Under the pieces are notes generated by a model. The model was given only the letters and a program-made list of their open reading frames with translations, had not been told where the DNA came from and did no database searches. Made by a program: the position numbers and the translations under genes. A stretch of 63,797 nt of DNA, counting the filler, from Conidiobolus incongruus B7586 (Eukaryota): assembly GCA_000697335.1 (NCBI GenBank). It is 10 parts of 10 records of this genome, joined end to end, with 100 filler letters (N's around TTAATTAATTAA, not from the genome) between each part and the next. Parts side by side here need not be neighbours in the genome. Positions count along the whole stretch, not along the records: positions 48,981 to 54,108 come from JNEM01006749.1; 9 more parts are not named here. One strand, 5' to 3'. This document shows positions 2,165 to 63,797 of this stretch, one piece after another; the first letter of the stretch is position 1; each line of letters starts with the position of its first letter.

Positions 2165-3078
2165 TTAAGCAGAGTCGGCCCAGGTTTGACCAGCAGAGGC
2201 GGATTGGTCCCATTCACCATCGGCCCAGGAGGAACCTTGGGCTTCAGCGTTGGCAGTAGCAACGTTGGCGAGAGCGGGGTTGAAACCACCAGTGGCGGCA
2301 TCACCGGAAGCTTCCCAGTTGGCATCGGCTTCGGGAGCGGTCCAGTTTTCGGCACCTTCTTGAGCACCTTCGGCGGCAACTTCGGCTTCCTTTTCTTGTT
2401 CTTCGGGATCTCTGTAGAAGAAAAGATCGACCATGACGTCCCAAGGGTCTTCGCGGGAGATGGTACCACGGAGACGGAGGATTTCACGGGCCAATAACCA
2501 GTAGATCAAACCGATGGAGTGCTTACCCTTGTTGTTACAGGGGATGGCAACATCGACGTACTTGAGGTTGGCATCAACATCAGCCAAGGCAATGACGGGG
2601 ACGTTGACGTAGGAAGATTCGATGATGGGTTGGAAATCGGTCAAGGGATCAGTAACGATGATCAAACGGGGTTCGCGGAAAGAGCGAGTGATGTAATTGG
2701 TGAAAGTACCGGGGGTGAAACGACCAGCAATAGCTTGGCAACCGGTGAAGTGGGCGAATTTGTGAGCAGCTCTTTGACCGTATTGACGGGCAGAAATGAC
2801 AACAACATCTTCGGGGTTTTCAATGCCGGCGATGATACGGGCAGCTAAGACAAGCTTTTCCCAAGTCTTACCGAGGTTGATGATGTTAACACCATCGTCA
2901 CGGCGCTTGTAGACGTAGGGGGACATAGCGGTTTGGGCGTTCTTAGCACCAATGTGAGATTGGGCAGCTAAGAGAAGCTTAATATCTTCTTGAGTGGCTA
3001 CAATTCAGAATTAGTAAATCATTCATACGTAATGATCAAAATCACTTTACCGTTCAAAACAGCGGGCAAATTAGACAT
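2165..3078 (-). CDS. RPS0: 40S ribosomal protein uS2 (S0/SA); exons 3078-3051 and 2997-2165
   Basis: Spliced translation [29 protein letters not shown]...[21 protein letters not shown]...[20 protein letters not shown] is the uS2 signature. 53-nt GT..AG intron 3050-2998 restores the frame. Strong C/T-ending codon bias. Confidence 0.98.
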
Positions 3079-10122: not shown

Positions 10123-11786
10123 ATGTCTATACCCTATCAATATTCAACAATACCTAATCCAATACCAAATAATGACACATCAACAGAAGATTATGATTCC
10201 GTTATTCTGACTGGTTTAAAAAATCCCAAAGATCGTTTATTCTTGTTAAAATTAGATAAAGATTTAGAAGCATTTATCCACGACAAAGAGTAATTATTAA
10301 TGATATTCCCATTAGTATATAACATATTAACCTAGTTTACAGTAATTCCAAATTAGAATTAAAAAATTTAAACTCTTACTATAGGTTATTCGTACATAGA
10401 TTAGCTCACCATTATAAATTAAGTCATCCGGTTAATCCAGAGAACCAAGCTATTGTACTTTATAAAAATATTGAGAGTTGCATGTAATTTTAACTCATTA
10501 TTCATCAAATAATTTTTTTTGATTAATAGAATTTTAGACCGAAGGTTAGACTCAATGATATTAAAGGACCCGAGATAGTTGAGGAGGATGTGAAGGTGCC
10601 TCAAGGGCTTATGATCATGAAGAGGAAATCGGATAATGCAAGTCAGCCTAAACAGCCTGTAATTGCGAAGAGGGATATGAAGAAGGATGAACGTAAACCT
10701 ATTATGAGCTTGGAGGAGAAGGAAGCTGCTTATCAACTGGCAAGAGCTCGTATCTTTCAGCAAGAAGCTGGCAGTATAGATATCAAATCTGCAGGAGTTT
10801 CCGACAGTGATTTGAAGGAAATGAGTACGTCTGAAAGTGATAGTGCAAACATTGATTATTTTAATAATGGGGAGGATACTCAAGTTAAAATGAATGATCA
10901 AAATCAAAGTAAAGAGAATAATGATAAGGATGTTGAAGTGCCAAGCCGCCAAACGATAACTACGCTACCCAATTATAATTACTTAGCAAATTATCAGGGT
11001 GATTCAAATACTTACAGAAGAGAAGGATATAACCGTAATTATAGTCCATATTTAAGTAATCCAACGAATCCTATAAATGTTGCACCTTATCAGCAGTTTC
11101 AAATTAATTTTCAACCTGGTTACAATGCGCCACCTTTACCTTCTTACTATCATGAAGGCTCTTCTGGAAACCATTCCAACACCCAAGATGATACATACTC
11201 AATGAACAATCCCAATATCTACGGTGGCAACAACTACGGTATGAATTACAATGCCCCAAAATCATTTACATCATATATAGGCACAGATCTATCATTTCGT
11301 CCACCTCCCAGAAACAGAGAATTATTTGATCCCTCCAAACCCTCCAAACCCAGTCAGAGGAATAGTGACCAGAACGATGTAAATAAGCTAACTCAATCAT
11401 TCAATCAGATTAGATTAGGAGTTGGATCCTCTTCAATTTCGCCCCAATCGAGATCTCCACGGCTAATCCACACACTCCAGATTCTACCCAAAAATCCCGA
11501 CGAGCCTCTGCGAAATGTGTTCATTCGAGGTGCTACAATCCGTCGATTGGCTCACAATGATCGTCACGTCCTACTAGCATTATTCGATAGTGATGAAGCT
11601 GCAGAACGTGCAATTCGCAACGAAGCTATGAATCCAGCGAGTAAAATTATGCTCATACGGTGGGAAAGTGGTGGTATCACACCCAAATCCCAAACTAGTT
11701 CCGGAGGCCCGCCATCACCGCAATTAGCGAGTCGCGTACCAACCGATATGACGCCAGCCACCAATCACTCGGTGCAAGCCATATAG
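10123..11786 (+). CDS. R3H + SUZ domain RNA-binding protein (R3HDM/ARPP21/Encore/Rbs1-like); exons 10123-10289, 10343-10483, 10538-11786
   Basis: Exon 1 LKNPKDRLFLLKLDKDLEAFI, exon 2 NSYYRLFVHRLAHHY (R3H motif), exon 3 SLEEKEAAYQLARARIF (SUZ). Introns are GT-AG and keep the frame. Confidence 0.9.
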
Positions 11787-14226: not shown

Positions 14227-14388
14227 GTAAGTGGAAGCATCCATTAAAATATCAAAAATTAACAGAATAAAGATAAAAGATAAAAACAAAAAATATATGT
14301 GCTAATTAATAGAATAAAATAATATAAATAGAGACTATATAATAAAATAATTGAAATTGATCATTCACTAATCTAATGTAAATTATAG
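14227..14388 (+). other. Probable 5'-UTR intron of RPL13
   Basis: GTAAGT at 14227, CTAAT branch sites, TAG acceptor at 14388, 3 nt before the ATG. Confidence 0.7.
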
Positions 14389-14391
14389 AAA

Positions 14392-15081: not shown

Positions 15082-16035
15082 GCGTTGTATTAAATTAGGA
15101 TGTCCATCAATAAAGCCCGATGACCCATCACTCCTCTCCATAGTTCTTTAGTTTCAGGCGATTGGTTTATAGATATAGTATTTAATACATATAATAATTA
15201 TATATATATGATTATTAACTTTTTTGCTCTATTACATTCTTAGTTATTTACATTTTTATAAATCCTATTCAATCCATGTAACCCATTACTCATCAATTAC
15301 ACACTCCATTTGTTATTTTCAAGCATAAACTTTTCAATATTCTTTAGATTATTTCATACCGTCTTCTAGTTTCAATTATTTTGCATTTCACTTTATTTGA
15401 TTTTTATTTTTCAATATATCATATTCCGTTTATTTTCCCTAATATTAATTTTGTATTATTATTCAATTTTTAATAAATCAAATAACCAACATAAATATGA
15501 TCAATTTCCCTCTTCATCATTTTAATTATTAGTTCAAATATATTAATTTATTCTTTTTGAATCATTGGACTAAGTTATTGCGGGAATAATTAAATATTTA
15601 GGTTGCATGTTATTCAAGGGTTTAGCAATTGTAATCCTTTACAAAGTCACTTTAAACAATTTTATTAATTAATATATTTGAAATTTTGTCAATAATTTGA
15701 GAATAAATTATTTAATGATCAGCTCAAACATTTATAAGATATAATTTCATTAGAATAAACAATAATATTAATAATTTATTGGTTAAAAAATTGTAAATGA
15801 TTAGAATGATCAATATTACCAATTGTTAATTTTTTTTCTATTAATTGATAGATTTATAATTTTAATTTTTATATATGATGAATCCTGAAATATTTTAGTT
15901 TATTGAAATTTAACAATGATATATTTTGTAAAATAAATTTATATATAAAACATCCTATTCTAATTGGATATTTTCTAACTATACATGTATAATCTTCTAT
16001 TTCCAAAAATAACCTAACATTCATGACAAGATTTT

Positions 16036-17338
16036 ATTATTAGTGTAGAAATTAAGTAATAGCATAATTTTAAAATTAAAATTAAACAAATAAATTAATG
16101 AATAATATAAAATTAATAGCTTCTTTTATTATTAATAACTTTTTTCTATACCTTTGGTAAGCTTTTAATACTTAAAAAACAGTTTTTTTATTAAGGACTG
16201 AAATTTAATGTTTCACAAACCAATTTAATTTATTTGTAGGAATTTTTTTCTTGCAAGCTGTTTTTTTAATTGTTTAAAACAATTATAATTATATAGGTTA
16301 TAATCAGGTGAATATACTAGATGTGGTAACTCCCTTTAATTTTTTTTATATAAAAAATCTTTTATAGTTTTAGCTTTATGTATTTTGTAATTATTATGTA
16401 AAATAATAGGTGTTTGTAATTTATATTGAGAATACTATTTAAAAATTGTTTTATTTAAAAAAGTAATATATAACTTGTTATTAATTGATTTTCCTTAAGG
16501 TATTAAATAAAAAACCATATACCATTATAATTTATTATAATAATTAACATTCACTTATATTTAAAGTATTTATTTATTAGAATTTATAGAAGGGATTAAT
16601 TTAACTTAACCTAATATTTTATTTTATTTTTAGGTAAAGAATTATATAAAAGAATTTAAGATTTATTAATTATAAGTATTCACTGTAAAAATCTTTGTTT
16701 TTAGTTATACTTTAATAAGTTTAGTTTAGCTATAGCTACTTTAGTTTTCTTTTAGGCTTCTGCTAAATTATAAGGTATCTATTTTATATTTTTATTAATT
16801 AATCTAAGTTTAAACTTAAGTAAATATAATATACTTATATAATTAATATTAAATTATTTTAATAATTCTCTAATAGATATAAAAAGGTATTTCTTAAAAT
16901 ATTTTTTTACTTTATTAGTAAGTGAAAAAATAACAGTAGAAATTAATTTTTTAGATTTTGGTAAATTTTAAATAATGTCCCTTCTAGCTTTAAAATTATA
17001 AATCTAGTGATATATGGTAGTTTTAAATAAAACACCATTTTTATAAACTGTTTACAAGTTTTAAATGATTTTAAAGGGTTTATAATTAAGTTTTAAAGAT
17101 ATAAAAATAAAAACCTTTTGATAATCATAATCTAATTTAAGTATGATTAAATTTAAATATAAATTTTAAAATCAAAATATTTTAATAAAAAAAAATAATA
17201 AAAATTGAATATATATATAAAGTTTGAAAATATTTATTTTCCTATATATTATATATATATAATTTTTCAAAATATATAATATGTTTGAAAGATCAGAAAT
17301 TAAAAAATTTGCCATTTCTTAATTTCTATACTAATAAT
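16036..17338 (-). mobile_element. mariner (DD34D) DNA transposon, ~1.3 kb, heavily C->T/G->A mutated
   Basis: Imperfect TIRs (ttagtgtagaaattaagtaatagca / rc ttagtatagaaattaagaaatggca). Minus-strand relic reads *IPYNL (WVPHxL), ILIINKS*ILYN (IVTxDESWxxYD), LHNN (LHDN) and LPHLVYSPDYNLYNY (LPHPxYSPDxxPxDY), with exactly 34 residues between the 2nd and 3rd catalytic positions. Confidence 0.88.
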
Positions 17339-18245: not shown

Positions 18246-18576
18246 AAAAGATATTTTTTTAAATTGATAATTTAATTTTATTATATTAAAACTAAATATT
18301 GATTATCAAAATTATTTAAAATTTATAAATAGTTTTTAATAATAAATAATTATTTAAATTAACAAATTATCATTGAGTAAATTATTTTAAAATTAAAAAA
18401 AACTATCTAAAATTTACTAAAATCTAAAAAACTAATTTTAATTATTATAATTTTAATTATTAATTAAATAAACAAAAATATTAAAATTTTTATTATATTA
18501 TTTTTTATCAAAATATAAATCAAATGCTAGATTAAACTAAATTAAGCTGTTTTTATATTTTTTTATATAAACACTG

Positions 18577-20082
18577 CATTAGCCTGCAAAAATAAGTTAT
18601 AAAATCAAAATTATTTTCATAATTACTTATATCTTAAATAATTCTTAATTAAATAAATTTAAATTAAAATATATAATTTACTAATATTAGTTGATTATAA
18701 CTAATTATATTTGATTATATTTTATTAACTATTGGTTATTATATCAAAACCTAAAATTTAACCAAGGTGAGTTATAAATTTATAGGTTTATATATTAAAG
18801 GTGTATAAATGACAAAACTTATATATATATCTTTTTTTTCTTTTGTTATATTATATATATTATAAAACTATTAAGCTAATATTTTAAAATTAATATTATA
18901 ATACTTAAATCTCTCTTTAAAAAAATTTACTTATATATTAATGAATTTTATAATGAAAATAAATTAACTTATGTGATTGTTAGAATTACTAGTATTAGTT
19001 AATCTTTTATAACTAGGGTTTTTAAAAACAATATTAAAAAAACACCTAAACTAAAATTTAAGTGTATTAAGATTATAATTAAACATGATAAAAAATATAT
19101 TTGTAGATTAATTAATATAAGTAAGTATAATATTATTATAAAAGTATAATAAGAATTACAAGACTATATAAGAATAGTAGTTAGTACTAATATTATTATA
19201 TATGTTTTTTATTAGAATAATTACCATTTATATTTTAAGAAAAAACACCTTTAAATAAAAAAGTCTTATTATTAAGTTAGATGGGAGTTTAAATACCAAT
19301 ATCAAAGTTAAACTAAAATTAACTAGAGTAAAGTTATTTAGTTTAATAAAACAAAGATATATTATAATAAATTTAATAAAAAAGCTAGATATTGCAAAAA
19401 AGATAAAAAACCACTTCATGAACATTATGTTATTATATCCCAAAAATACAATGGTGGATTAATAATAATTTAGAGATATATATTATCTTCAAGTATAAAG
19501 TATTTTTATAAGGTTAATAGGGTAATTAATATTGAGATATATTAAAATATTCTAAATAATAAATTGAAAAAATATATTAAATGATATAAATAAATTAAAT
19601 ATTATTTTCTAACAACATAATACCCTTTGTTATATTCTAAATTTTACTATTAAATAGCTTAAAAATAACAAAATAATTATTATTAAATAGCTTCTTTAAT
19701 TACTTAATTTTAACTTAATTAAATATGTTTGGGATTTATTAAAAAATTAATTAAAGCTTTCCTCTTAGCAAAAAATTTAAATCAACTTTAAGATTATATT
19801 TAAGAAGCTTAAAATAATATTAGTCTTGCTTAATATAAGAAGCTAATTGACTTTATACCCTATAAACTTAAAGAAATTAGAAAAGCAAAAGATAGATATA
19901 CTAGATATTAATTTTTCTATTAATATCAAAACTTATAAATTTATAACTTATTTTAAATATATTTTAAATTTTAATATATCAATTAATAATTAATTAAATT
20001 TAACTTTATATACTATATTATAAATAAAAAATATATATTAATTATATAGTTTAATATAAATTTATTTAAATTAGAATTAATT
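18577..20082 (+). mobile_element. Tc1-like (DD34E) transposon, divergent subfamily B, degenerate, right end lost in gap
   Basis: TIR cattagcctgcaaaaataagttataaaatc, inner repeat ccaaggtgagttataaatttatagg at 18762, transposase relic ~18900-19910 colinear with the 51495 copy. Confidence 0.85.
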
Positions 20083-20182: not shown

Positions 20183-20591
20183 GCTCTTATTGATTAATAT
20201 TTGAACGGCGTGATCTTCGGCGAACGGGGGATGGGGGTATAGATTCTCCACCAAATTAACACGTCTTGGGAAAGCCGCGTCCGGAATAGTATAAGTAAAA
20301 GAGAGAGATCTAGGGATTTCCAGGTAAAGGTTAGGGAGATAGGGGGTTTATTGATTTAAGCCAAATAGCTGGGAGGACCCAGATCGAACTCCTTCTCTGT
20401 AGTATAGCTCTGTTTCTGGGTTCTATATATAGTGCATAGAGTAGTAGGTTTCTGGAGTTTTCTGGAGGGTTGTATCATTAGCTGATTAAAGGATAGGGTT
20501 GAAGTGGTTGGTCACATGAGGGGGGGAATGACCCTTATATTCAGTTGAAGTAAGCATATTACGTGGGAGGAGAGTCACCTGACTCGTGACA
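20183..20591 (-). mobile_element. Probable LTR of a Ty3/gypsy retrotransposon, unmutated, abutting a gap
   Basis: Sharp GC-richer island starting TGTCACG (minus, 20591), with TATATATA then AATAAA in LTR order. No ORF; the contig breaks at its inner end. Confidence 0.55.
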
Positions 20592-22260: not shown

Positions 22261-22332
22261 GGGACCTTTGTCTGACCTTAAATAAATCTCAACAAATCAT
22301 TTCTCACATTTTTTCAAGATTGCTATTTCCTC

Positions 22333-45518: not shown

Positions 45519-47250
45519 GCTTATGAAATTGACTATATATAGTTTACTATTTTTTCAGAATTCTCAACTATTTAATCGTTGTACAGTTTCAATAAACTAA
45601 AATTTCCAAATTTTTCTAATATTCTTTACTTTTTGATATCAAAATAATTTAAATATAAATAATTATTGGTGTAATTAAATAATAATTAAAGTAATGATGT
45701 ATGAAATAAAAGTTATTGATTTTTTGATTTTTAGGGACCATATTCATTATCATTATTAATGTTGAAATTTGTAAATTAGAAAATTATGGGATTGAAATTT
45801 AATATAATTTATTAATTCAAATACTCTTAGAATTGATAAAAATTGCTAATATGAAAAATAATATATATATTAAGTATTTTATAATATCGCTACAAATAAG
45901 ATTATTTCTTTTTTGAAATTATTGATGAAATACTTTTTATCAATTTGAATTTTTCAATATCTTTGGAAAATCAAAATTGAAAATATATTTTAATTTCAGG
46001 TAACAATATGAAAATACATCAAAATTTATTTTGTATTTTTTATAATATATATTGCTAGATTGATAGTATTTGATTAATCTATCATTAATTTGTATTTAAT
46101 ATTTATTGTATTGATATAACTTTATATCACGAAGAAATGAAATATATTAACATAGATTTTATTAATATTAAAATATTAAAATATTGATAATAGTTATGTT
46201 AAAGTATAATCAATCAATAATTTGAATATTTTAATTAAATTAAAAGACACAAGGTTTTGATAATATATAGTATTATGTTAATGAATTATATAATATATAG
46301 TGTACTTGAAAGTTATTGAATTATATATGATAATAATGAATTTGAAAAAAAGGCCACCATATTGAAATCAAATGTTTATAAATTAATACAAAATAATACT
46401 GAATTTTTAAGAAGTTATTTCTAATAATTTAAACTTTTGTTGTATTTTTATATTAAGTTTTATAAATATAGGTTGTAGTTAGAAAAGTACTCAAAATATG
46501 ATTTAGTAAATTATTTATTAATCCTGCTCTTTAACATATTGGGACTGTAGGTTTGAAAACTTACTGTTGAGGTGTTGTAGCAGAATATCCAAAAGAAAAA
46601 ACTTTTTTCTATCTTTATCACTTTTGGGTTTAAATAGTTGCTTAATTGAATGCTATGAGATTTGAATATAATCTAATAAAGAAAACAAAGTGAACAAAGA
46701 GTATCCTTTAATTATAGACTGACAAAGCCAGCTTAAATTAGAATTAATATTGGTTTAACTATCACAATGGAATAAATGATTAAATTTAAAATACAACACT
46801 TTATCAAAGGCATAATAATGAAAAATATTTAATAAATTATATAATCTTAATACCTAATCATTAGAAATAAAAATCCAGAGATTGAAATTGAATTTAATTT
46901 GTAGATGAGTTGAAAGAGTGATATGAAAATATTATGAATTTGTGCTGGTTTTAATATAAAATTAATAATTAAGTGAATTGACAGAGATCGGAAAATTTAG
47001 GAAAACTGATTTTGATTAATTTAAGATCAATACTCAAAAATCATATAAAATGTTATATAATTAGACAAATTACTTGTTGTATTTATAACGAAACTAATTA
47101 TCTCAAAATAAGATAATTAAAGTTTCCAAAATCTGTCGAGATTACAAGATTGAAAAAACAGCCTAATATAAAAATTAGCTATCAATAATAAACTTCCTAG
47201 AAAATTTTCAAATTTTAGTTGAAATTTTAATTTTTAAAAAATTGAGTTAA

Positions 47251-47460
47251 TTATTCTTCGTCGGGTTTAGCCCAGAGCCTACCGGCCAAAGGGATTTTGG
47301 ATAAGATGTCTTGTTGGACCAAGGGAACACCTTCACCTAAGAAGAGTAAAGCAATACCAGCGACGGCACCAAAACGAACGGCGGTGGGGGCCCAACGCAT
47401 AGCGATTTCGGGAGTAATGCGACCAAAATGGGGAGTTTTCTTATATCTGTTGAGATTCAT
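47251..47460 (-). CDS. QCR10: Cytochrome bc1 complex subunit 10
   Basis: 69 aa, PHFGRITPEIAMRWAPTAVRFGAVAGIALLFLGEGVPLVQQDILSKIPLAG, typical fungal Qcr10. Strong codon bias. Confidence 0.9.
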   Translation of the reverse strand: MNLNRYKKTPHFGRITPEIAMRWAPTAVRFGAVAGIALLFLGEGVPLVQQDILSKIPLAGRLWAKPDEE

Positions 47461-47846
47461 TTTTATTTGATTAACTAGTTAACTGAGATATATACAAGTT
47501 AATTAAGGTTTGATATTGATTGTGTATCTTAATTATTAGGAATTGATATGATACAGTGTGATCAAAATTTATGGGATTGGATTATCTTATCTCTATCAAA
47601 TCAATTTTAATTATTTGATATAAATAATTTAATATATTTTGATAAAGCCAAATATCATATAAAATCATAAAATTAATATTTACTTAATAACAATATCTAT
47701 ATTTAGGTATATATTATATTACTCTTTTAGATAGCTATTTATTAATTCGACATAATTCTTCATTTTCAATCAAATTTCAAAAATACACTCTTTTTATATA
47801 ACCAAAAATTTATGGAATTTAAATTATATTGTACAAATAGATATAC

Positions 47847-47847
<1 letters not shown>

Positions 47848-47881
<34 letters not shown>

Positions 47882-47883
47882 TT
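47848..47883 (+). repeat. (AAT)n microsatellite, ~11-12 units
   Basis: Direct inspection. Confidence 0.9.
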
Positions 47884-48416
47884 GAAATTATAACTCACCT
47901 TTTTAATGTTCCCTATATATCAATCAACAGATTAAAATTAATTAAATATAAATTCAATTTTAATCCAATTTGTGAAATCTTATTTCTTTGTGAATTAACT
48001 AATAGCACTTTTTTACAGTTAATATTTCAGTTCCAAAATTATAGATGAACATATTATGATTAAATTAATAAATTAGTTTATCTTACAAGTATATTTAATT
48101 TTTTTTGGAAAAATAAAAAATATTCATTTTTATTTTTCTAATATAAGTTCAATATAAATATCATTGAATTTAGGTATTCTTCCTGAGTTTATAATGAGTA
48201 ATATATTTTCATATAAATAATATTTTGTATTTTGTATTTTGGAATCTGAATCTGAAATATCAAATATATCTTAATTGTGATATGTAGCATTAAAGAATCA
48301 ATAACCAGATAATTTTCAAAATAATTTTTATATAGTATTATTTGAATTATTATGTGTGAAAATAATTTATATGAATTATTTAATTTAACTTAACAAAAAA
48401 TTTTCTTGGAATTATA

Positions 48417-48880
48417 TACTAACTTATAAAAATAAGTCATAGAATCAAAAACACTTATATTTTTACTAATAACTTAATTAATATTTAATAAAATAAACTT
48501 AAATTAAATAATTAAAATTATATTTATTTTTATTAATATAAATTATTAAATAATAATATTTAGTTAATTAATTAGTTAAAATATCAACTCTTAAATTTTA
48601 CTTAAGATAAGTTATAAATTTATAGGTTTTTAGTAATAAAAAAATTAAAACTTAATATATTTACCTATAACATTTTTAAATTTTTTAAGTTTATAAGGTA
48701 TAAAATCAATTAACTTTTTATATTAAAAAACATTAATCTTGTTTTATATCTCTTAAATATATTTTTAAAATTAATTTAAATTTTTTATTAAAAAAAATTT
48801 TAATAATTTTTTAACTAGTTTTAAAGTTATTTAATTAAATTAAGGTTAAGAAATTAAAAAAATTATTTTATAACTATTAC
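48417..48880 (-). mobile_element. Tc1-like copy, TIR plus transposase 3' end, truncated by gap
   Basis: TA|tactaacttataaaaataagtcatagaatcaaaaac TIR; colinear with 51495-51965 but far more AT-shifted. Confidence 0.88.
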
Positions 48881-49573
48881 NNNNNNNNNNNNNNNNNNNN
48901 NNNNNNNNNNNNNNNNNNNNNNNNTTAATTAATTAANNNNNNNNNNNNNNNNNNNNNNNNNNNNNNNNNNNNNNNNNNNNTAGTTTTAATATAATTCAAT
49001 TTAATTTTAAGTCTATTAAGACCAAATAAATATGAATTAATCTATGATTTAAGGAGCCAAAAATAATACTCCCTTATGATATTAAATATATAAAAAGTTA
49101 TTATAATTGTTAACATCTTATATATAAATCTAATCTTAATGCTAATTAAAAGTCCCAAAATATTATTAGAAAATATTAATACAAATAAAAAAATATAAAG
49201 CATTATATATAATCCCAGAGGAAGTGATAAAAGATCAAAATTAATCTTATTAAATATATTAAATATAGATATATTAAAAAACTATTTCCATATTATTTAA
49301 TAAAGATTATTTCAAATAATATCAATATAATATGTTTATTATAAAGTGGTTTTACTGATAATCAATATTGATATTGCATTTAAAGTTAATATTTTAAATG
49401 AATAGGATATTTATATTAAGTTAAAAAAAAAGCTTATTAACCTAATGGCTGGAAAATAAGAGTTTATTATTAAGGTTTTATAATCAGATTTATATAGTTA
49501 TCAGGTAAATAAAAATATATTACAATAAAATTATAAAAGAATTAATAAATAAATAATTATATTTGATTATATA

Positions 49574-50830
49574 CATTTGCTTATAAAAGTCAGTTATAAA
49601 ATTATGACTATATATATTTTTATTAATAACTCTGTTAATTCTTAATTAAATTGATTTAAATTAAAATATATAATAAACTTATATTATTTATTTATAATTA
49701 AATATATTTGATCTAATTATATTAACTTTTAGTTATTATATTAAAATTTAAATTTTATTTAAAATAAGTTATAAATTTGTATATTTTAGTTATAAAAAGG
49801 AAATTAAAACTTAATATATCTATCTTTTGCTTTTTTAACTTCTTTAAGTTTATAAGCTATAAAGTCAACTAACTTTTTATATTAAAAAGAATTAATTTTA
49901 TTTTAAGCTTCTTAAATATATTTTTAAATCTTATTTAAATTTTTTTTGGTGAAAAAGCTTTAACTATTTTTTTCACTAATTCCAAAGGTATTTAATTAAA
50001 TTTAAGTTAAAGGATTGAAAAAACCACTTTATAAATGTTATTTTATTATTTTTAAACTATTTGGTAATAGAAATAATAATATATCAAAAGACATTATTTT
50101 ATTAGAAAATAATATCTAATTTATTTAACCTATATTATTTAATAATATTTTTTAATTTAATATTTAAATTATTTTAATATATTTTAATATTAATTCCCCT
50201 ATCAACTTTATAAAAATACCTTATACTAATATATAATATATATATATAAATTATAATTAACTTATTATTAAATTTTTAATTTAAAATAACATAATAGTTA
50301 TAAAGTAATTTTTTTAAAATATCTAGCTTTTTTATTAAATTTACTAAGTTATATTATTGTTTTATCAAATTAAATAACTTTATTTTAATTAATTTTAATT
50401 TAATTATAATAATGATATTTAAACTCTTATCTAACTTTATAATAGAATTTCTTTAGTTAAGAGTGTTTTTTCTTAAAATATAGGTGATATTTGTTATAAG
50501 GTAAAGTGTGTAAAATAATATTAATATTAACTAATATCCTTATATAGTCTTGTAATTCTTTCTTTATTTTTATAGTAATATTATATTTCCTTATATTAAC
50601 TAACATATAAATATATCTTTTATCATTTTATTTATAATCTTAATATTTTTAAATTTAAGTTTAAATATATCCTTATTATAATTTTTAATATCTTTAACCA
50701 TAATAAACTAACTAACATTAATAATTCTAGTAATCTTATAAGTTAATTTATCTTTAACATAGAGTTAATTAATATAAGTGAATTTTTTTAAAAAGGGATT
50801 TAAGTATTTTAATACTAATATTAATTAAAA
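49574..50830 (-). mobile_element. Tc1-like copy (subfamily B-like), 5' end missing or interrupted
   Basis: TA|catttgcttataaaagtcagttataaaatt TIR; transposase relic ~50805-49805. Confidence 0.85.
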
Positions 50831-50867
50831 CAATAATTTAAAATATTAATATTAATATAAATATATA

Positions 50868-53800
50868 TACTAACCTATAAAAATAAGTTATAAAATCAAA
50901 TATATATATATATATATATATATTAATTAGTAATTAAAACAATTATATATATTAAATTACTTGAAATTATAATATATAATTATAATATATTATATGATAA
51001 TAAATAAATATATTTAAATATATTAAGTAAATTATTAGCAAAAATATTAACCCTTAATATTTAACCAAGGTGAGTCATAAATTTGCAGGTTTTTAAGATA
51101 AAGGGATATATTTAACAATATATAACTATATCTTTTTTCTCTTTTTGTTTTTACTTTATATAATATTTTATAGATATATTAAATTTTTTTATTAGTATCA
51201 TTATATTTAAATCCCTCTCTAAAAAAATTTACTTGTGTATCAATTAACTTTATAAAAAAAATAAATTAACTTATAATATTACAAAAATTATTAGTATTAA
51301 TTATTTTACTATAGTTGAAGTTATTAAGAATAACAATAAAAATACATTTAAACTTAAACTAAAGTATGTTAAAATTATAAATAAATATAATAAGAACTAT
51401 ATTTATAAGTTGGTTAATATAAGCAAGTATTATACTATTATAGAAATATAACAAAAATTATGAAACTATACAAAAATATTAGTTAGCACTAATACACTAA
51501 CCTACAAAAGTGAGTCATAAAATCAAAAACACCTATATTTTTACTAATAACTTGATTAATATTTAATGAAATAAACTTAAATTAAATAATTAAAATCTAT
51601 TATATTTATTAGTTATATATATCATTAAATGATGATATTTAGCTATTAATTGGCTAAAATATAAACCCTTAAATTTTACCTAAGGTGAGTTATAAATTTG
51701 TAGGTTTTTGGTGATAAAAAAAAATTAAAACCTAGTGTATCCACCTTTAGCTTTTCTAACTTCTTTAAGTCTGTGGGGCATAGAATCAACTAACTTCTTA
51801 CACTAGGAAGGGTTAATCTTGTTCTATGCTTCTTGAACATATTCCTAAAGTTGATCTAAATTTTTTGCTGGGGGGAAAGCTTTAATAGCTTTTTTTAACT
51901 AATCCCAAAGGTGTTCAATTAGATTAAGGTTAGGAGATTAAGGAGGCCACTTTATAACTGTTATCTTGTTATTTTTAAGCTATTTGGTAGTAGAAGCTGT
52001 AGTATAGCAAGAGGCATTATCTTGCTGGAAAATAACATCAGATTTGTTTAACCCATACTATTCAATGGTTTTTTTCAATTCATTGTTCAGAATACTTTGG
52101 TACATCTCAGTATTAATTCCCCCATTAACTTTACAAAGATACCCTACACCTGAAGACAACATACATCCCCAAACAATAATTGACCCACCACTATACTTTT
52201 GGGTAGAATTAACATGATGGTCACAAAGTAATTCTACATCTTTTCTGAAGCATCTAGCCCTTCTATCAGATCCACTAAGGTATATTTTTGTTTCATCAGA
52301 CTAAATAACCTTACTCCAATCAGTTTCAGTTCAACATTAGTAGCAACATTCAAACTCTTACCTAGCTTTACAGTAGGATTTCTTTAGTTGGGGGCATTTT
52401 TTCTTGAGGTGTGAGTAGTATCCATGCTGACATAAAGCACATATAATAGTATCAGTGCTAACCAATATTCCTGCATAGTCTTACAGTTCCTGCTATATTT
52501 CTACAGCAGTACTACACTTGCCTGTACTAACCAACCTACAGATATACTTCTCATCATGTTCATCTATGATCCTAGCACACTTAAGTTTAGGTTTAAATGT
52601 TTCTTTATTGCTATTCTTAACAGCCTTAACTACAGTAGACTAGCTAACACCAGTAATTCTAGCAATATCATAAGTTGATTTACCTTCTTTACAAAGTTGA
52701 TTGATGCATAAGTGGATTTTTTTAGAGAGGGATTTAGGTATAATAATACTAATAAAAAAAATTTAGTATATCTGTAAAATATTATATAAAATAATAGCAA
52801 AGAGAGAAAAAAGATATGGTTATATATTGTTAAATATATCCCCTTATCTCAAAAACCTGCAAATTTATGACTCACCTTGGTTAAATATTAAGGGTTAATA
52901 TTTTTGCTAATAGTTTACTAAATATATCTAAATATATTTATCTATTATTAAATAATATACCTTAATTATATATTATAGTTTCAAGTAATCTAATATATAC
53001 AATTGTTTTAGTTATTAATTAAAATATATATATTTTTGATTTTATGACTCACTTTTGCAGGTCAGTGTATTATTATATGTGTTTTATATTAATATAGATA
53101 TTACTTTTATTTTAAGAAAAAACACCCCCAATTAAAGAAATCCTATTATAAAATTAAATAAAAGTTTAAATATTGCTCTTAATATTAAATTAAAGCTAAT
53201 GAGAGTAAAGTTATTTAGTTTAATAAAACAAAAATATACTTAATAAATTTAATAAAAAAGCTAGATTTTTTAAAAAAGATATAAAATTATTTTAAAACTA
53301 TTATGTTAATTTTACCTAATAGTATAATGATAAGTTAATTATTGTTTAAGGATAAATATTATTTTTAAGTGTAAGATATTTTTGTAAAGTTAATAGGGGA
53401 ATTAATATTAAGATGTATTAAAGTATTTTAAATAATAAATTGAAAAAAATTATTGAATAATATAAGTTAAAAAAAATTCAATAATATTTTCTAATAAGAT
53501 ATTACCTTTTGTTATATTATAGCTTCTATTATTAAATAGCTTAAAAATAACAAAATAACAGTTATAAAATAGTTTCTTCAATCTTTTAACTTTAAACTAA
53601 TTGAATATTTTTAAGATTAGTTAAAAAAAGCTGTTAAAGCTTTTCCTTTAACAAGAAATTTAAATTAGCTTTAAGAATATTTTTTAAGAAATATAAAACA
53701 AGATTAATCTTTTTTAATATAAAAAGTTAATTGATTCTATACCCTACAAACTTAAAGAAATTAAAAATGCTAAAGATAGATATATTAAATTTTAATTTTT

Positions 53801-54023
53801 TTATCACCAAAAACCTATAAATTTATAACTCATCTTAAGTAAAATTTAAGGATTGATATTTTAACCAATTAATAATTAAATATTATCATATAATAATTTA
53901 TTCTATTAATAGATATAATAAATTTTAATTATTTAATTTAAGTTTATTTCAATAAATTTTAATTAAATTACTAGTAGAAATATAAGTGTTTTTGATTTTA
54001 TAACTCACTTTTATAAGTTAGTA
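50868..54023 (+). mobile_element. Tc1-like host copy, split by a nested younger copy at 51495-53067
   Basis: Both TIRs present. The sequence either side of the insert rejoins to agcactaaTAttattatatgtg, exactly as in the uninterrupted copy at ~62840. Confidence 0.92.
51495..53067 (-). mobile_element. Tc1-like (DD34E) transposon, full-length 1573 bp, least-mutated copy; transposase pseudogene ~52741-51725
   Basis: TA duplications at 51493-4 and 53068-9; TIR CACTGACCTGCAAAAGTGAGTCATAAAATCAAAAA. Motifs WSKVI*SDETKI, GGSIIVWGCM, IFQQDNASC and KWPP*SPNLNLIEHLW, with 34 residues between D and E. Confidence 0.97.
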
Positions 54024-54208
54024 AATATATATATATATATATATATAATTTAATAAAAATTATTCAAGTAATTTTTGTTTTATATATTTTTTTAACTTAT
54101 TAACCTAANNNNNNNNNNNNNNNNNNNNNNNNNNNNNNNNNNNNNNNNNNNNTTAATTAATTAANNNNNNNNNNNNNNNNNNNNNNNNNNNNNNNNNNNN
54201 NNNNNNNN

Positions 54209-56630
54209 ATTATTTTAAAATTATATGATACTATAAAATATAAGATTAGAAATTAATTAATCTAATAATTTCCAATTAATAAAAATAAATATATTATTTA
54301 AATTTAATAATTTTATTTATTATTAATGACTTTTGGTTATATTTTCATTATATTTCTAATATTTGCATTATTTCTTAACTATAAATTAATATTTAATAAT
54401 TTATAAAGTTTAAATTTTAATAATAATTTTAAATAATTTATTATTATTTTTTAATCACCCAAAGTCATTATAATTATATATTTTTTAATCTAATAATTTT
54501 AATAAAAATTATAACTATTTTAAATTTTATAATAACAAAATATTATATAACTTTAATTTTAAATATTTTATAATTATTATATAAAATAATAAGTGTCCTA
54601 ATTTTATATTAATATCTTTAATTAAAAATAATTTTATATAAAAAAATAATATATAAATCTATTAATTATTAGAATTAATTATTTTTATTAATAAATAAAA
54701 TATTAAAATTTATTAATAGAATCATTTTAGCTTAATTTAATATTTTATTTTTTATTATATTAAAGAAATATATATTTTAATTTATAAATAGTTAATTCTA
54801 ATAATTTATTATAAAAACTTTAATAATTAATTATATTTTAGTAAGCTTTAATCTTTTATAAATATTTGGGTAATTTTTAAGTTTTAATTTATTTATTAAA
54901 TATTTTTAAACTATATTAAGTATAATATATAAATATAATTAAACTTAATTTATTTTTATCTTTTTTAATTAGAATAAAATATTTCTTATAATAAATTTTT
55001 AAATTATTAATATTCAAAATAAAATTATAATTGAGATTATATTTTTTTTATAATTTATCAAATTTTTGATAATTTTTATTTTAATTTTAAAATAGTTTAT
55101 TAAGTAATAAATACTTGTTATAAATATTTTTTTATTCAAAATAACCTATAAATATTAAAAAATTTCAAAAATCTATTATTAAGTTTTATAAATAATAAAT
55201 TAAAATAATTTAAATAATCAGTGTATATTTAAAATATAATATAATTAAATAATAATATTAAAAATATTTTTTTAATATAAAAAAGTTATTATAATATTAA
55301 TATATTTATAATATAATATAATTTCCAATATATATAATATTTATTTATATATCTTAATTTAATAACTATAAAATAATAAAAATTAAAATTAAAAAAATAT
55401 TTAATTATTTTAAATTGAAAAAAATTTATATTTAAATTAATAGATATTTTTTAATTAAAATATTAATTTTGATATTTTTATAATTTGAATATATTTAAAT
55501 TAAATATTAATAATTAAGTTTTTTGGATTTTTATATTAATTAATATTAATAATAAATTTTTAATATTTATATAATTTAAAAATAATTTATTAAATTTATT
55601 ATAATATTTTATTATTTATTAACTTATTTTGAATATTATAAATAATTATATAAAAATTAATTAAAAGTTTTAAAAATAATTTTTTTTAATTATAAAAAAA
55701 GCTAAATATATATTTAATATATATTATTATTTCAATTATAAAGTAATTAAATTAATTTAATATTTAATATATATTAAAGTTTTAAATTATATTAAATAAT
55801 TAAAATATTAAATAAATATTTAATAAATTATTTCAAAAAAATAAATATTTAAATAGAAAAATTTATAAAAAATATTTTAAAAATTAATTAAAAAATAAAA
55901 ATTTTAAAATAAATTATATATTTATTCTATATAACTGCTTATTAAAATAAAAATTAAATATTTAATATAAAAATAATTTTGATTTAATTATAATAATTAA
56001 ATAGTTCTTTATTATAAAATATAAATTATTATAATATATTTATAATATTATATTATTATTTCTAATTATTAAAGATAATTTTATTAATAATAATTTAAGG
56101 TTATTTGTCATTTAAAAGAATAATTATAGAGTCCATTAAGTTATAGCTTTAAAAGATTATCTAATTAATTATTAATTAATAAAAGCTATTATATCTAATA
56201 TACTTATTAAATTATAATCTTTATAATGATAATTTTATTTTAAGCAATTAAAAAAAATATATTTACAAAAAAGAAAATCTCTATAAATAAATTTAATTTA
56301 TTTGTGAAATATCAAGTTTTAGTTTTTAATAACAAGAACTATATTTCAAGTTTTAAAAGTATCCTAAAAATATAGTATAGAATTATTAATAAAATATTAA
56401 TATTAATATTAATATTAAGGTCTAAACTCACCTAGGGCAAGGAATTATATAAGAGGGAATAAAATACTAAGCATATAACCAAAAAAACTAAGTAATATAT
56501 AAAAGAAAGAATAAAGAAAATAGAGAAAAGTGATTATTAGAAAAGGTTAAGCAGTTCAAATATCTAAAACTCTTTAAACGATGGCTTATAATGTGAAGTT
56601 TCTAGAATATCACTAGTTCTTGTGACGAGG
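54209..56630. repeat. Extremely AT-rich degenerate repeat remnant, possibly ending in an LTR-like segment (~56400-56630)
   Basis: Almost no C/G, no CpG until the distal edge, starts at a gap. Family not recognisable. Confidence 0.4.
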
Positions 56631-57861: not shown

Positions 57862-59944
57862 ATTTTTTTTCTATTATTTTTATGAAATTAAATATACTTA
57901 TTGAGTCAAAATTATTGAAACAAACTCTATATTATTTAATGGTATTTATAATACTAATTATCAATTCATTTCAATTGTATTAATTCATTATACTATCATC
58001 TTATTAGAATATTAGTATTATTTTTGGTTATTTGAATACTTTAATAACTAACATTTAATCCCATAAATATATATGATCATAATATTCGATGAAATGAAAA
58101 TTATAAATTAAAAATAAATATATATTTCTATTAAAATATTATAATAGTTTAATAAATAATACAACAATAATGATTAAATTAGTGAAATTGTTATTATTGA
58201 ATGATATAAAAAATTTATAATCATAAAGTATTAATATTAGTTAATGATAAGTTAGACATTGGTTAGTGCTTATATTATTAAGTCATTCTAGTGTATAAAT
58301 CGGTTTCAAATCCAATGAACTCTTACCACTAAATAGTTGTTCAAATATCCTTTGTAAATAGTAATCAATGTTTTGTGCATTTTGGAGAATGCTGGTGACT
58401 TGTGTGAGATCTTATACTAAATGCTTCTAGAAATCGTGTAATTTTGTAAGAAATATTATTAAAACACCTGAGAAAGAAAAGAATCTTTATGTTATTTATA
58501 ATGAACTAATTCTATTATGATTTATACCTGATTGAATAATGTTAACATATTTATTAAAAACTGTTCAAGTATATAAATTTAAAATTAATTAAAATTATTC
58601 ATTAAAATTAATTACTAATAGAATTTTTAATCATATATTATTACTCAAGGAGAAAAATGTATACTATTATAATAAGTACCCTTAAATATTTTAAAATTTA
58701 TTTTAAAAGCTCAGGGCTTTTATAGAATATATAGAAATTATTATGAATTATCTTGTAACATATCTAATTATATACTTAATTTATTATTTAGCGAGAATGA
58801 TCTCTATATATTACTAGGTCAAATTCATTAATGTTTCATAGATATAAATTTTAAATTTATTTCTTTAAATATTCTTAAGGATAAATTAATTGTTAATAAA
58901 TTTTGACTTAAAATTCTAAAAGTTATAGTTATGTTTAATTGGATCTTAAACTTAAGGACAAAGTTAATATTAAAAATTTATATAATATATATATATATAT
59001 ATATAATTAAATTATAAATGATAAATTTTAAATTATTATATAGTTAATTATTATATTAAAAGAACTTTATTTAAATAATAATGAATTTTTTGATATCAAA
59101 TATATTAATTCTAATTATAAATATAATTAATATTAGTTCTTTATATATAATTTTTAATAATTTTTTATTTAAAGATATTTATATTCTTATTATAAAAAAC
59201 ATTTATATTTTAAATATATATTATTTAATTCTAATAATCTATTAATCTAATTTTAATAAAAATTTGATTAAAAATATTAAATTTTAATATTTAAGAATTT
59301 AAGGATTTAATATATTGAAATAAAGATTTAAGATAAAATAAAGAAATTATTATATTATATATAATTTTTATTTAAGGAAATTTAAAATATTATAAAAATA
59401 TATTATAACAAAAATATAAATTTAAATAAAATTATAAATTATTAATTAATTGAATTTATTTATTTAATATTATTAAAAAATTAATTTAATATTTTTTAAT
59501 TAATATTAAACTTATATTAATTATATTATTCAAATATTTTATTAAATTATTTTATAAATCAAATAATGGAAAAAATTATTAAAATAAATATATTATTATA
59601 TAATTTATAAAACTAATATAAAAATCTTATTTTTTTTATAGTTTATAATTTGTTATTATTTATCAAGTTAGTTTCTAATATATAAAAAATTAATTTTTAT
59701 TAAAACCTTATATTATTAATTTTATAAATTAATATAATATTTATTTATATAAATCTTTTATAAGCATAGTTTCTAAAAAACCCAAATTATTTATAATTTT
59801 ATATATTATAATTTGGTAAATATATTATATTTAATGGATTTTAAAAGTTTTATATAAAAAATCTTTAATAATTTTAGTTTCATATATAAAATATTTATTA
59901 ATCAAAATAATAAATAGTCTTGATTCTTTATAAATATAATAAAT

Positions 59945-61195
59945 AAATATTACTTTATAATTTATATAATGGCAATTTTTTGTAATTAGAAAAAAATTTA
60001 TATTTTAATATATAAAATTAATAATTTTCTTTATTTCTAAAAACTTTATATTATATTTTAAATAAAGTTCTAATATCTAAAGAATAGTTCTTTTTATTAA
60101 AAACCAAATTTTAATATTTTACAAACTAATTAAATTTTTTGATAAAAAATTTTTTTATTATAAGTTGATTATTGAATTATCTAAAATAATTATAATTATA
60201 TAAGTTATAATCTAAGGTATAAACTGGATATGGTAGTTTTTTCTAGTTATTCTTGATTAAAAAGTTTTTATAATTTTAATTTTATAAATTTTGTAACTAT
60301 TATTCAAAATAATTAGTTTTTATAAATTTTATTAAAAATATCAATTAAAAAAATTTTATTTAAAAAAATAATATAAAATTAATTATTAATTAAATTTTTA
60401 TTTAGGAATTAAATAAAAACAGCATATGCTATTATAATCCATTATAATAATCAACATTTGCTTTTTAATATAGTATTTATTTAAAGGAATTTATAAAAGG
60501 GTTTAATTTAGCTTAATTTTATATCTTGATTTATATTTTAATAAAAAATTATATAAAAGGATCTAGATTTCATCAATTATATTAATTGGTTTTAATAACC
60601 TTGGTTTCTAGGTATATATTAGTAAATATTATTTAACAATAACTATTTTAATTTTTTTCAAGCTTTATTTAAATTATAAAATATGTATTTTAAACTTTAA
60701 TTAATCAATTTAAATTTAAACTTCAATATATATAAAATAATAATATAATTAATATTAAAATATCTTGAAAATTCTTCAACTAAAATAAAAATATAACAGT
60801 TAAAATTAGGTTTCTAAATTTTAGCAAGTTTTAAATAGTTTTCTTTTAGCTTTAAAATAATTTACCTAATAGTTAATTATAAATTAAGATAATATTTTAT
60901 TAATAAAAATTATTTATAAATTTTAAATAATTTTAAAAGATATATAATTTAATTTTATTAATACTAAAATAAATAACTTTTGATAATTAGTATTTGATTT
61001 AATTATAATTAAATTAAATAACTAATTTTAAAAAAATTATTTTTATAATCAAAAAATATAATATATAAATATATATAATTCAAAGCTATTCATTATCCTA
61101 TTTATTTTATATATATTCTTTTATTTAATATTAATAATAAGTTTCAAAAATCTGAAATTAAAAAATTTACCATTTTTTTAACTCAATAATCATAA
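59945..61195 (-). mobile_element. Second mariner (DD34D) element, related subfamily, more degenerate
   Basis: Minus-strand KKLPYPVYTLDYNLYNYNYFR*F..QL and DIRTLFKI*YKVFRNKRNY* parallel the 16-kb element. The right flank (tctgaaattaaaaaatttaccattt) resembles 17293-17317. Ends are approximate. Confidence 0.75.
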
Positions 61196-62230
61196 TAAAA
61201 TAATATTATATTTATTATTAATTAATTTAAATATAAAAATATAATAGGTAATTAATTTTTGATTTAAAAAACTAATTTATCAAATGGAATATATAATAAA
61301 AAATTTTTTATTTTATTTAATATTTTTTGAATATATTATAAATTAAAATATTTTAAATTTAATAATTATAGTTATTTATTATAATAATCTTTGCTTTTAA
61401 GTATTTTTGAATATATTTAATTTAATGACGTATATTTTATTTATTTTTTCAGCTTAAGATAAATTATAAGGTTTTTAATATTTTTTTGAATTGAATTAAA
61501 ATTAATAATTAAAAATATTAATTATAATTTATATTTAATATTAAATTATATTATGTAATATTTTAACTTATTTTAAATAAAATTTCATTAATTTAATATT
61601 TTTATTTTTTTATTCTTTATAAAAAAAGTTATAAATTTTCTATATTTTGATCTTTAATTATTGAAAAAATTTAATTTAATTAAATCTATTTTTTATTTTA
61701 ATTTAAATAAAATTAAAATTTAATTTTGAATAAAATATTATTTAATTATAAATAAAACTTAAAATAAACTTTTTAATATTATTTAAAATTTATAAATAAT
61801 TTTTATAATAAGTTATTATCAAATTATATTTTATAATTGTGAATAAATTATTATACATTAAAATTAAAATTAATTTTAAATTTTATTAATTTAAAATTAA
61901 AAAATTAATCAAAATTTTCAAAAATACCCTTTTATTTTAGTTAAATAATAATCAAAAAATATTAATATTAAATATATATATAATAAATTATTAATTTAAA
62001 ATAAAAATATATTTAATAAATATTATATATTATAATTAAAACTTAAAAAATTAATATTAAATAAATCCTATTAATTTTTAATTATAAATAAAATATTTAA
62101 TAATAAATTATTTTAANNNNNNNNNNNNNNNNNNNNNNNNNNNNNNNNNNNNNNNNNNNNTTAATTAATTAANNNNNNNNNNNNNNNNNNNNNNNNNNNN
62201 NNNNNNNNNNNNNNNNTTAATATATATATA

Positions 62231-63797
62231 TACTAACCTGTAAAAATAAGTCATAAAATCAAAAATATATATATTTTAATTAATAACAAAAACAATTATA
62301 TATATTAGATTACTTGAAACTATAATATATAATTAACATATATTATTTACTAATAAATAAATATATTTAGATATATTTAGTAAACTATTAGTAAAAATAT
62401 TAACCTTTAATATTTAACCAAGGTAAGTTATAAATTTGTGGGTTTTTGAGATAAAGGGATATATTTAACAATATATAACTATATCTTTTTTCTCTCTTTG
62501 TTATTATTTTATATAATATTTTACAGATATACTAAATTTTTTTTATTAGTATTATTATACATAAATCCCTCTTTAAAAAAATCCATTTGTATATTAATTA
62601 ACTTTATAAAGAAAGTAAATCAACTTGTGATATTGTTAGAATTACTAGTGTTAGCTAGTTTACTATAGCTAAAGCTATTAAGAATAGCAATAAAGAAATA
62701 TTTAAACTTAAACTTAAGTGTGTTAAAATCATAGATAAATATGATAAGAAGTATATCTATAGGTTAGTTAGTATAGGTAAATGTGGTACTATTGTAGAAA
62801 TATAGCAGGAATTATAAAACTATATAAGAATATTAGTTAGCACTAATATTATTATATGTGTTTTATATTAGCATAGATACTACTTACACTATAAGAAAAA
62901 ATGCCCCTAACTAAAGAAATCTTATTGTAAAGCTAGGTAAGAGTTTAAATATTGCTATTAATGTTAAACTAAAACTAATTAGAATAAGGTTATTTAGTAT
63001 AATAAAACAAAAATATATTTTAGTAGATTTGATAAAAAAGCTAGATACTTTAAAAAAGATACAGAACTATTTTGTAACTATTATGTTAATTCTACCCAAA
63101 AGTATAATAGTGGGTTAATTATTATTTAGGGATGTATGTTGTCTTTAAGTGTAAAATATCTTTGTAAAGTAAATAGGGGAATTAACACTGAGATGTACTA
63201 AAGTATTCTAAACAATAAATTGAAAAAAACCATTAAATAGTATAAGTTAAACAAATCTAATGTTATTTTCCAGCAAGATAATACCTTTTGCTATACTATA
63301 GCTTCTATTACCAAATAGCTTAAAAATAACAAAATAACAGTTATAAAGTAGCTTCTTCAATCTTTTAACTTTAATCTAATTAAACACTTTTAGGATTAGT
63401 TAAAAAAAGCTATTAAAGTTTTCCCCCTAGTAAAAAATTTAAATCAACTTTAAGAATATATTTAAGTAGTATAGAATAAAATTAACCTTTCCTAGTGTAA
63501 GAAGTTAATTGATTTTATACCACACAAACTTAAAAAAGTTAGAAAAGCTAAAAATAGATAAACAAGGTTTTAATTTTTTTTATCACCAAAAACCCACAAA
63601 TTTATAACTCACCTTAGGTAAAATTTAAAAGTTTATATATTAGCCAATTAATAGTTAAATATCATCATTTAATGATATATATAACTAATAAATATAATAG
63701 ACTTTAATTATTTAATTTAAGTTTATTTGATTAAATTTTAATCTAGTTATTAGTAAAAATATAAGTGTTTTTGATTTTATAACTCACTTTTGCAAAT
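62231..63797 (+). mobile_element. Tc1-like copy, near full length, right TIR cut by window end
   Basis: TA|tactaacctgtaaaaataagtcataaaatc TIR, both inner repeats and the whole transposase relic; colinear with the reverse complement of 51495-53067. Confidence 0.95.

Follow-up and report, generated by a model that had tools for sequence, protein, structure and literature searches.

Introduction

RIP, known from Neurospora crassa and other Pezizomycotina, depends on RID/Masc1 and takes place before meiosis, in the interval from fertilisation to karyogamy; it targets any sizeable duplication, genes included, and its single rounds leave strand-biased clusters of mutations. RIP-like hypermutation in some basidiomycetes prefers the trinucleotide TpCpG, and pure CpG decay turns CG into TG or CA, raising the observed/expected (o/e) ratio of CA+TG. 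The CpG-only signatures of basidiomycetes are linked, in the account given in PMC4352252, to Masc2/Dnmt1 class IIA enzymes, and the mutator of Zymoseptoria tritici is described as methyltransferase-linked and as needing no sexual cycle (PMC8016269).

According to the cited sections of a 2025 survey of 1,239 genomes, RIP-like signatures are confined to ascomycetes (PMC12543289), and PMC13297926, in the portion drawn on here, lists RID as ascomycete and 5mC as near-undetectable in early-diverging fungi. The first-pass annotation of the DNA analysed here held that RIP is not established in zygomycete-grade fungi; this is a fair statement, but RIP has been suggested for the Entomophthorales through dinucleotide indices, as set out in part of PMC11105155. 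In the literature searched, with subscription journals outside its reach, no alignment-level report of such hypermutation was found for Conidiobolus.

Results

Host placement and samples

The window, that is, the whole stretch of 63,797 nt analysed here, consists of 10 contigs joined by nine 100-nt linkers. Its RPS0 exon (Table 1) is 93% identical, over 276 residues, to the protein of Conidiobolus coronatus NRRL 28638, the runner-up among the 120 matches listed reaching 68%. Conidiobolus belongs to the Entomophthorales and is thus non-Dikarya, as the first-pass annotation had proposed for the host; a Pezizomycotina host with ordinary RIP, named there beforehand as grounds for refutation, is not where RPS0 leads. 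A search for TAF5 homologs among longer proteins (E 1e-15) returned no match, and the RPS19-like protein had no counterpart in the protein collection searched. The host taxon is therefore based on RPS0 together with the co-occurrence of the RPS0 contig, the TAF5 contig and the Tc1 element in public run X1, in which 0.91 of the TAF5-contig words, contigs identical to the RPS0 contig and 1476 pieces at least 99% identical to Tc1 copy A are present (2811 such pieces in run X4, which is one and the same sample as X1). The contig of copy A carries no host gene, and copies H and I lie on the TAF5 contig. Runs X5 and X7 (organism B) gave 0 pieces on Tc1, which is no proof of absence and makes them unusable as an outgroup, since host genes in X5-X7 are represented by only 8-12 short pieces. 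Other host genes in the window encode a Ge1/Edc4-like WD40 protein (5152-8224), a Zn2Cys6 factor (22282-23025) and a ribosomal protein S19 family member (40208-40465).

Table 1. Coordinates of the features discussed, counted along the window; ratios are transitions:transversions.
Feature	Coordinates	Strand	Remarks
RPS0 exon, used for placement	2165..3004	-	CpG o/e about 1
SUZ-domain gene	10530..11786	+	window copy keeps CpG
Second DDE transposon family relic	16000..17200	-	CpG 0 of 7.5, CA+TG o/e 0.72; relatives 54239-56417 and 59533-62023
Tc1 copy D, more distant subfamily	18575..20082	+	288:151 vs A
Tc1 copy C, the entire contig	29445..30795	-	85% to A
Tc1 copy I, end fragment, TAF5 contig	33929..34034	+	6:0 vs A
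CpG-free flank of copy I	34035..35796	.	CpG 0 vs 8.7 expected and CA+TG o/e 1.20 in the first kb; not repeated elsewhere in window
CpG-poor flank of copy H	47415..48414	.	CpG 2 of 7.7 expected, CA+TG o/e 1.20
Tc1 copy H, end fragment, TAF5 contig	48415..48880	-	83:13 vs A
Tc1 copy G, more distant; cut at EF start	49570..50860	-	273:109 vs A
Tc1 copy EF, split by A insertion (50866-51494 and 53070-54024)	50866..54024	+	older, more mutated
Tc1 copy A, full length, least mutated; nested in copy EF	51495..53067	-	TA target duplication; terminal inverted repeats long, bearing outer and inner direct repeats
Dead transposase frame of copy A	51725..52741	-	338 codons, 14 in-frame stops; 57% to nearest intact homolog P0122
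Tc1 copy B, near full length	62228..63797	+	89% to A

The Tc1 element and its copies

With an HTH and DDE_3 transposase (DDE_3 E 1e-13 and HTH_Tnp_Tc3_2 E 3e-6 in a Pfam scan of copy A), terminal inverted repeats and a TA duplication, the element is a Tc1/mariner transposon. The window holds 8 copies, A included, and all of them are dead. Copy A sits inside copy EF, in which 244 of the 448 C/G sites kept in A are now T or A; damage therefore tracks age. Between the outer ends of copy A there are 2 changes, and between its inner repeats 3; each is C>T at CpA and none is a transversion, which indicates that CpA mutation occurred in place, provided that the ends were alike at insertion, as they presumably were.

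At both ends (51495-51710 and 52850-53067), the direct repeats, outer and inner alike, hold TGAGTCA, an AP-1/Gcn4-type motif. Mutation is lighter at the ends than in the frame for B, C and EF (P 0.048, 0.054 and 0.001), a difference not seen in D; protein protection or selection for mobilisable ends could account for such sparing.

Mutation spectrum among copies

Copy A contains no CpG where 31.8 would be expected at 28.5% GC (Poisson P 1.5e-14), and the 8 Tc1 copies together contain 0 against 72 expected, which bears out the absence of CpG first noticed in the 1573-bp copy. Compared with A, transitions outnumber transversions by 194:4 in C, 159:15 in B and 262:33 in EF; the expectation that sister copies differ almost only by transitions thus stands for these three copies and for H and I, and fails for the distant copies D and G (Table 1). 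The changes are directional, C>T/G>A exceeding the reverse by 182:12 in C, 147:12 in B and 244:18 in EF, with 1-6 indel events per pair. At the 409 C/G sites kept in A, copy C has 182 C>T/G>A changes and 0 transversions, so that non-CpG transitions are far commoner than transversions; overall, A and C differ at 44% of non-CpG C/G sites and by transversions at 4 of 1350 sites. The mutated inner repeat described beforehand was also found, at 48602.

The family was sampled more widely by aligning public contigs onto copy A, pieces of less than 80% likeness being excluded. Run X1 (16,828 pieces on A) yielded 318 transition places against 7 transversion places, 275 being C>T/G>A and 43 the reverse, and run X4 gave 337 against 13. 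Among the 40 of 350 variable places listed, the 30 forward ones comprise 20 CpA, 9 CpT and 1 CpC. That only 43 reverse places reach 2% of depth gives no sign of an abundant intact master among pieces above the likeness cut-off. Contig depths sum to about 1e5 on the element and about 1e2 on genes, values not taken here as copy number. Mutated sites are common to copies beyond chance (odds ratios 1.5-11), with only 1 site private to A; hot sites or inheritance from already-mutated templates would both give such sharing, and some mutations may be inherited.

Polarity and sequence context

Polarity was assigned with an outgroup of 15 intact transposase homologs, 47-57% identical, which define 154 conserved residues. 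Changes at these residues are explicable by C>T/G>A alone in 25 of 30 cases for copy A, 67 of 73 for B, 72 of 79 for C, 82 of 93 for EF, 82 of 98 for D and 81 of 93 for G. The lesions quoted in the first-pass annotation are present, including ATA where the homologs start with Met, Trp to TAG and Arg to Cys, as is SPNLNL in copy A where 14-15 of the 15 intact homologs have SPDLNP. A count based on the maximum-GC ancestral state was set aside for outgroup polarisation; sites lost in all copies are invisible to it and its rates are therefore underestimated.

Contexts were counted at codon positions of unambiguous context, dropping positions 54, 169 and 189, where the family differs from the outgroup. 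In copy A, mutated inferred sites amount to 5/5 for CpG, 9/26 for CpA, 1/17 for CpT and 2/31 for CpC. The corresponding values for CpA, CpT and CpC are 17/26, 8/17 and 8/31 in B, 23/26, 7/17 and 17/31 in C, and 23/26, 11/17 and 17/31 in EF. CpA exceeds CpT and CpC combined both in A (9/26 vs 3/48, P 0.003) and in C (23/26 vs 24/48, P 0.001), and these site counts uphold the proposed order CpG > CpA > CpT/CpC. When sites kept in A are pooled over B, C and EF, losses amount to 270/446 at CpA, 233/562 (41%) at CpT and 67/279 (24%) at CpC. The second downstream base also has an effect (CAG 0.77, CAT 0.71, CAA 0.49, CAC 0.47, CTG 0.52, CTC 0.15), as does the 5' base (C 0.55, T 0.48, G 0.40, A 0.36), the 3' base counting for more. 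For a check of TpCpG preference, the close copies reveal no more than 4 former CpG sites. Both strands are mutated evenly, and no strand runs were detected along the copies (runs test P 0.57-0.85); many rounds would erase such clusters.

Host-gene and composition controls

The CpG o/e ratio is 0.77 in exons and 0.90 in gene-adjacent non-coding DNA (21% GC; 131 vs 145 expected), against 0/72 in Tc1, and the CA+TG o/e ratio is 1.09, 1.12 and 0.71, respectively. Host genes thus keep CpG, as had been claimed for CpG-rich genes near Tc1, but they are not simply nearby: RPS0 and RPL13 lie on a different contig, and of the contigs with these genes the TAF5 one alone carries Tc1 ends. For a control of the spectrum, a host-gene region with a second, diverged copy in X1 was used, a partly coding and noisy comparison in which 443 of 521 pieces aligned only partly. 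It gave 407 transitions to 130 transversions and a symmetric direction, 200:207, and so differs from Tc1 in both respects (Fisher P 2e-21 for 318:7 vs 407:130; P 5e-27 for 275:43 vs 200:207); the host-gene region, in other words, does not carry the Tc1 spectrum, as single-copy neutral DNA would have had to for the first-pass annotation to be refuted. Dividing C>T per C/G site by transversions per site gives about 150 for A-C, 34 for A-B and 26 for A-EF, compared with about 5 for the gene region; relative to this host-gene background, C>T at non-CpG sites is in excess by a factor of 5 to 30, according to the pair. Together with polarity and context, this control supports the directional, two-stranded, repeat-restricted process of broad context that had been proposed.

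In X1, the SUZ-domain gene is represented over 10849-11732 by an identical contig and by a second copy, 86% identical to it (123 differences in 884 bases) and at equal depth (89.7 vs 83.8). This second copy is not hypermutated, which, depending on ploidy and provided that both copies share a nucleus, would lean against pure homology sensing. Judging by the second gene copies in this run (10849-11732; 1700-15900), the genome looks hybrid, duplicated or heterokaryotic, or the sample mixed.

CpG loss in flanks and repeat bodies

Eight fixed-length flanks beside repeat ends were analysed, in preference to a pooled test whose end points had been picked post hoc from CpG positions. CpG is depleted in 5 of the 8 (0/8.7, 2/7.7, 1/4.8, 0/2.8 and 1/5.1, observed/expected) and not in the other 3 (5/9.0, 15/17.2 and 13/9.8), and the CA+TG o/e ratio is 0.98-1.35 in all 8, against 0.71 in Tc1. 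Five flanks therefore lose CpG with CA+TG kept or raised, so that CpG loss reaches past the repeats, unlike non-CpG loss. Within the window, second copies of the flanks are scant or absent; the flanks could be old unrecognised repeats. A Pfam scan of the CpG-free ones found no domain, 28 of 31 translations being blank. The single mutational process envisaged by the first-pass annotation is accordingly directional and repeat-linked, as stated there, but the data split it into two tiers, CpG loss that extends into flanks and non-CpG loss that is repeat-confined.

Two further stretches are CpG-poor: 45560-47000 upstream of TAF5, which is non-coding and holds no recognised repeat (4 of 11.7 expected), and 25205-26500 at a contig end (1 of 10.8), where CA+TG is raised (1.32).

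Other repeats

AT saturation in the second DDE family is too advanced for a spectrum to be drawn (151:117 for the best pair). At 54209-56420 and 58830-62116 nested relics of this family have fallen to 7-8% GC, and this DNA is the end state of the process. Two LTR segments are exceptions to the rule that all repeats lack CpG. An LTR-like segment at 20183-20595 (44% GC, bounded on the minus strand by TG..CA, with a primer-site-like word after it) keeps 12 CpG vs 17.6 expected (o/e 0.68) with a CA+TG o/e of 0.74, and its flank shows no CpG loss. The 3' end of a chromodomain LTR retrotransposon lies at 30896-31592 (Chromo E 2e-8); its coding part and first LTR half have 0 CpG, and its last 160 bases (31430-31592) keep 6 vs 4.8 expected.

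Discussion

The best explanation for these patterns, to which we give about an even chance, combines CpG methylation and deamination with a probably RID-independent, repeat-confined and CpA-biased mutator, the candidate enzyme being of DNMT1/DIM-2 type; the dead copies would then probably be the mark of a methyltransferase-linked genome defence. Behind it stand, as direct observations, the spectrum and its polarity, the order of contexts, the restriction to repeats, the heavier damage in the older nested copy and the CpA changes between the ends of one copy. Transposons and up to 1-2 kb of their flanks would be CpG-methylated, and deamination of 5mC would remove their CpG; the loss of CpG and gain of CpA/TpG in flanks is what pure CpG decay would produce. 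Inside repeats, non-CpG cytosines would then be attacked by the methylating enzyme itself or by another of the DNMT1 family, CpA first and more readily where the second downstream base is G or T; they would be converted to T much faster than background and over many rounds, and every copy found would in this way end as a stop-riddled, AT-rich relic. Targeting might be through small RNA/heterochromatin or through DNA pairing, and the timing might be vegetative or tied to the zygospore.

A PF00145 domain by itself could be that of DNMT2. Genes with this domain are reported for all entomophthoralean sets, C. coronatus included (PMC11105155, in part). A precedent for the mutator is the Dim2-dependent mitotic CA>TA mutation described for Zymoseptoria (PMC8016269), and the zygomycete Phycomyces is described as having DIM2 and DNMT1, with CG plus CHH 5mC on transposons (PMC11258239). 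RID/Masc1 homologs are given only for Dikarya, save one likely bacterial transfer, in the relevant part of PMC5751038. Against this best reading, two LTR segments keep CpG, 3 of the 8 flanks are without CpG loss, mutations are shared and the gene control is noisy; by analogy, too, a Zymoseptoria-type mutator would be expected to spare CG, unlike what is seen in the Tc1 copies. Also against it, a kingdom-wide k-mer survey assigns 'no_rip' to C. coronatus NRRL 28638 as well as to each of its 8 Zoopagomycota (PMC12543289).

The 5- to 30-fold C>T excess might also be reached by passive deamination of heavily methylated non-CpG sites, and the most serious competitor, although we rather doubt it, is decay of this kind alone, in which dense CG and non-CG methylation, small-RNA-directed and repeat-confined, is followed by hydrolytic deamination over long times with no active mutator. 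The sequence CpG >> CpA > CpT > CpC resembles an order of methylation levels, strand clustering is absent (P 0.57-0.85) and damage scales with age in the nested pair. Full methylation of CpG speeds spontaneous C>T about tenfold; the A-C ratio near 150, compared with about 5 for host genes, is a high value for partly methylated non-CpG sites that decay spontaneously. Transposons of Phycomyces do bear the CG and CHH 5mC that passive decay calls for, by the account in PMC11258239, whereas CA mutation in Zymoseptoria did not follow methylation level in the data described in PMC8016269. General AT drift of the genome or an artefact deserves practically no weight: intergenic DNA is about 21% GC and the assembly fragmented, but gene-adjacent non-coding DNA keeps CpG (131 of 145 expected), host-gene differences are symmetric and the family spectrum recurs in two runs of one sample, so that run spectra, host-gene control and CpG composition already contradict it.

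True RIP, that is, recognition of duplications by DNA pairing during sexual reproduction or in resting spores, superimposed on ordinary CpG decay and either the forerunner of ascomycete RIP or a convergent counterpart, appears unlikely to us. It would fit the end of CpA loss at the repeat boundary and the rank of CpA as top non-CpG context; the C. coronatus figures given in PMC12543289 (0 1-kb repeats at 95-100% identity, 555 at 80-95%), the RIP index of 24.2% for Z. radicans and the two-domain methyltransferases of relatives described in PMC11105155, and the statement in PMC7136305 that zygospores can form in the genus, also favour it. It is opposed by the lack of strand-biased runs, by losses of 41% and 24% at CpT and CpC, and by the 884-bp, 86%-identical gene duplicate that stands at equal depth and is not hypermutated, provided that it shares a nucleus with its counterpart; nor is RID reported outside Dikarya in the portion of PMC5751038 concerned. 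Editing of transposons by an AID/APOBEC-like or other cytosine deaminase is very improbable. Changes that are only C>T/G>A and some effect of the 5' base agree with it, but the 3' base outweighs the 5' base, the strands are evenly hit without runs, a cut-and-paste element has no single-stranded reverse-transcription stage, and a CpG-only halo requires methylation anyway.

Returning to methylation with a DNMT1-family mutator, a bolder version may be put forward only tentatively, and we think it rather unlikely to hold as a whole: a RID-free, repeat-sensing CpA mutator would act atop CpG methylation, RIP-type defence would predate the split between Dikarya and zygomycete-grade fungi or have re-arisen from a DNMT1-family enzyme, and AT-rich intergenic DNA would have masked the signal from k-mer surveys. 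The survey test, as described in PMC12543289, requires AT-rich words to be enriched twofold in repeats over non-coding DNA, and the values given for C. coronatus are 0.87-1.03. Such a test is probably hard to pass where non-coding DNA is already about 80% AT, and the surveyed C. coronatus strain is not the present genome. Alignment-level, outgroup-polarised evidence from Conidiobolus contradicts a strict ascomycete-only view and supports the tentative index report for the Entomophthorales. What is new here is the two-tier split between spreading CpG loss and repeat-confined CpA/CpT/CpC loss, which provides a sequence-only test usable on other early-diverging genomes; whether RID, and whether sex, is needed for CpA-biased repeat mutation become testable questions in a culturable fungus.

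Comparison with known systems

The element itself resembles Tc1/mariner transposons of DD34E type in its HTH and DDE_3 domains, terminal inverted repeats and TA target duplication, and differs from them in that every copy found is dead and that its closest intact homologs are unnamed and 47-57% identical. The RIP-index signal of Zoophthora radicans, Entomophaga and Entomophthora is likewise a repeat-linked CpA depletion in Entomophthorales; it is a composite dinucleotide index with stated caveats and, in the portion of PMC11105155 at issue, comes without alignments, polarity, context spectrum or a Conidiobolus value. The CpG-only transposon hypermutation of basidiomycetes (Microbotryum, rusts), as presented in PMC4352252, shares the complete CpG loss, attributed there to methylation and deamination, and matches the flank tier, whereas most changes counted here are non-CpG (182/409 non-CpG C/G sites for A vs C). 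The Dim2 mutator of Zymoseptoria tritici shares the CpA-biased C>T concentrated in repeats; in the results described in PMC8016269, more than 98% of its C>T fall at CA and CG is spared, while in the Tc1 copies no CpG is left and CpT/CpC have been mutated too.

The likeness to the RIP of Pezizomycotina lies in two-stranded C>T in repeats with few indels or transversions, in the sparing of host genes, in the AT-rich relics, in CpA as the top non-CpG target and, as regards CpA though not CpG, in the confinement of mutation to repeats. The process differs from RIP in its non-Dikarya host, in CpG being lost first and beyond the repeat (0/72 left; 5/5 inferred CpG vs 9/26 CpA in A), in the substantial hits at CpT and CpC and perhaps in the sparing of a diverged gene duplicate. 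Since CpG is its foremost target and a role for RID, a sexual timing or homology sensing would be conjecture, we do not class the process as RIP, although its sequence traces are RIP-like.
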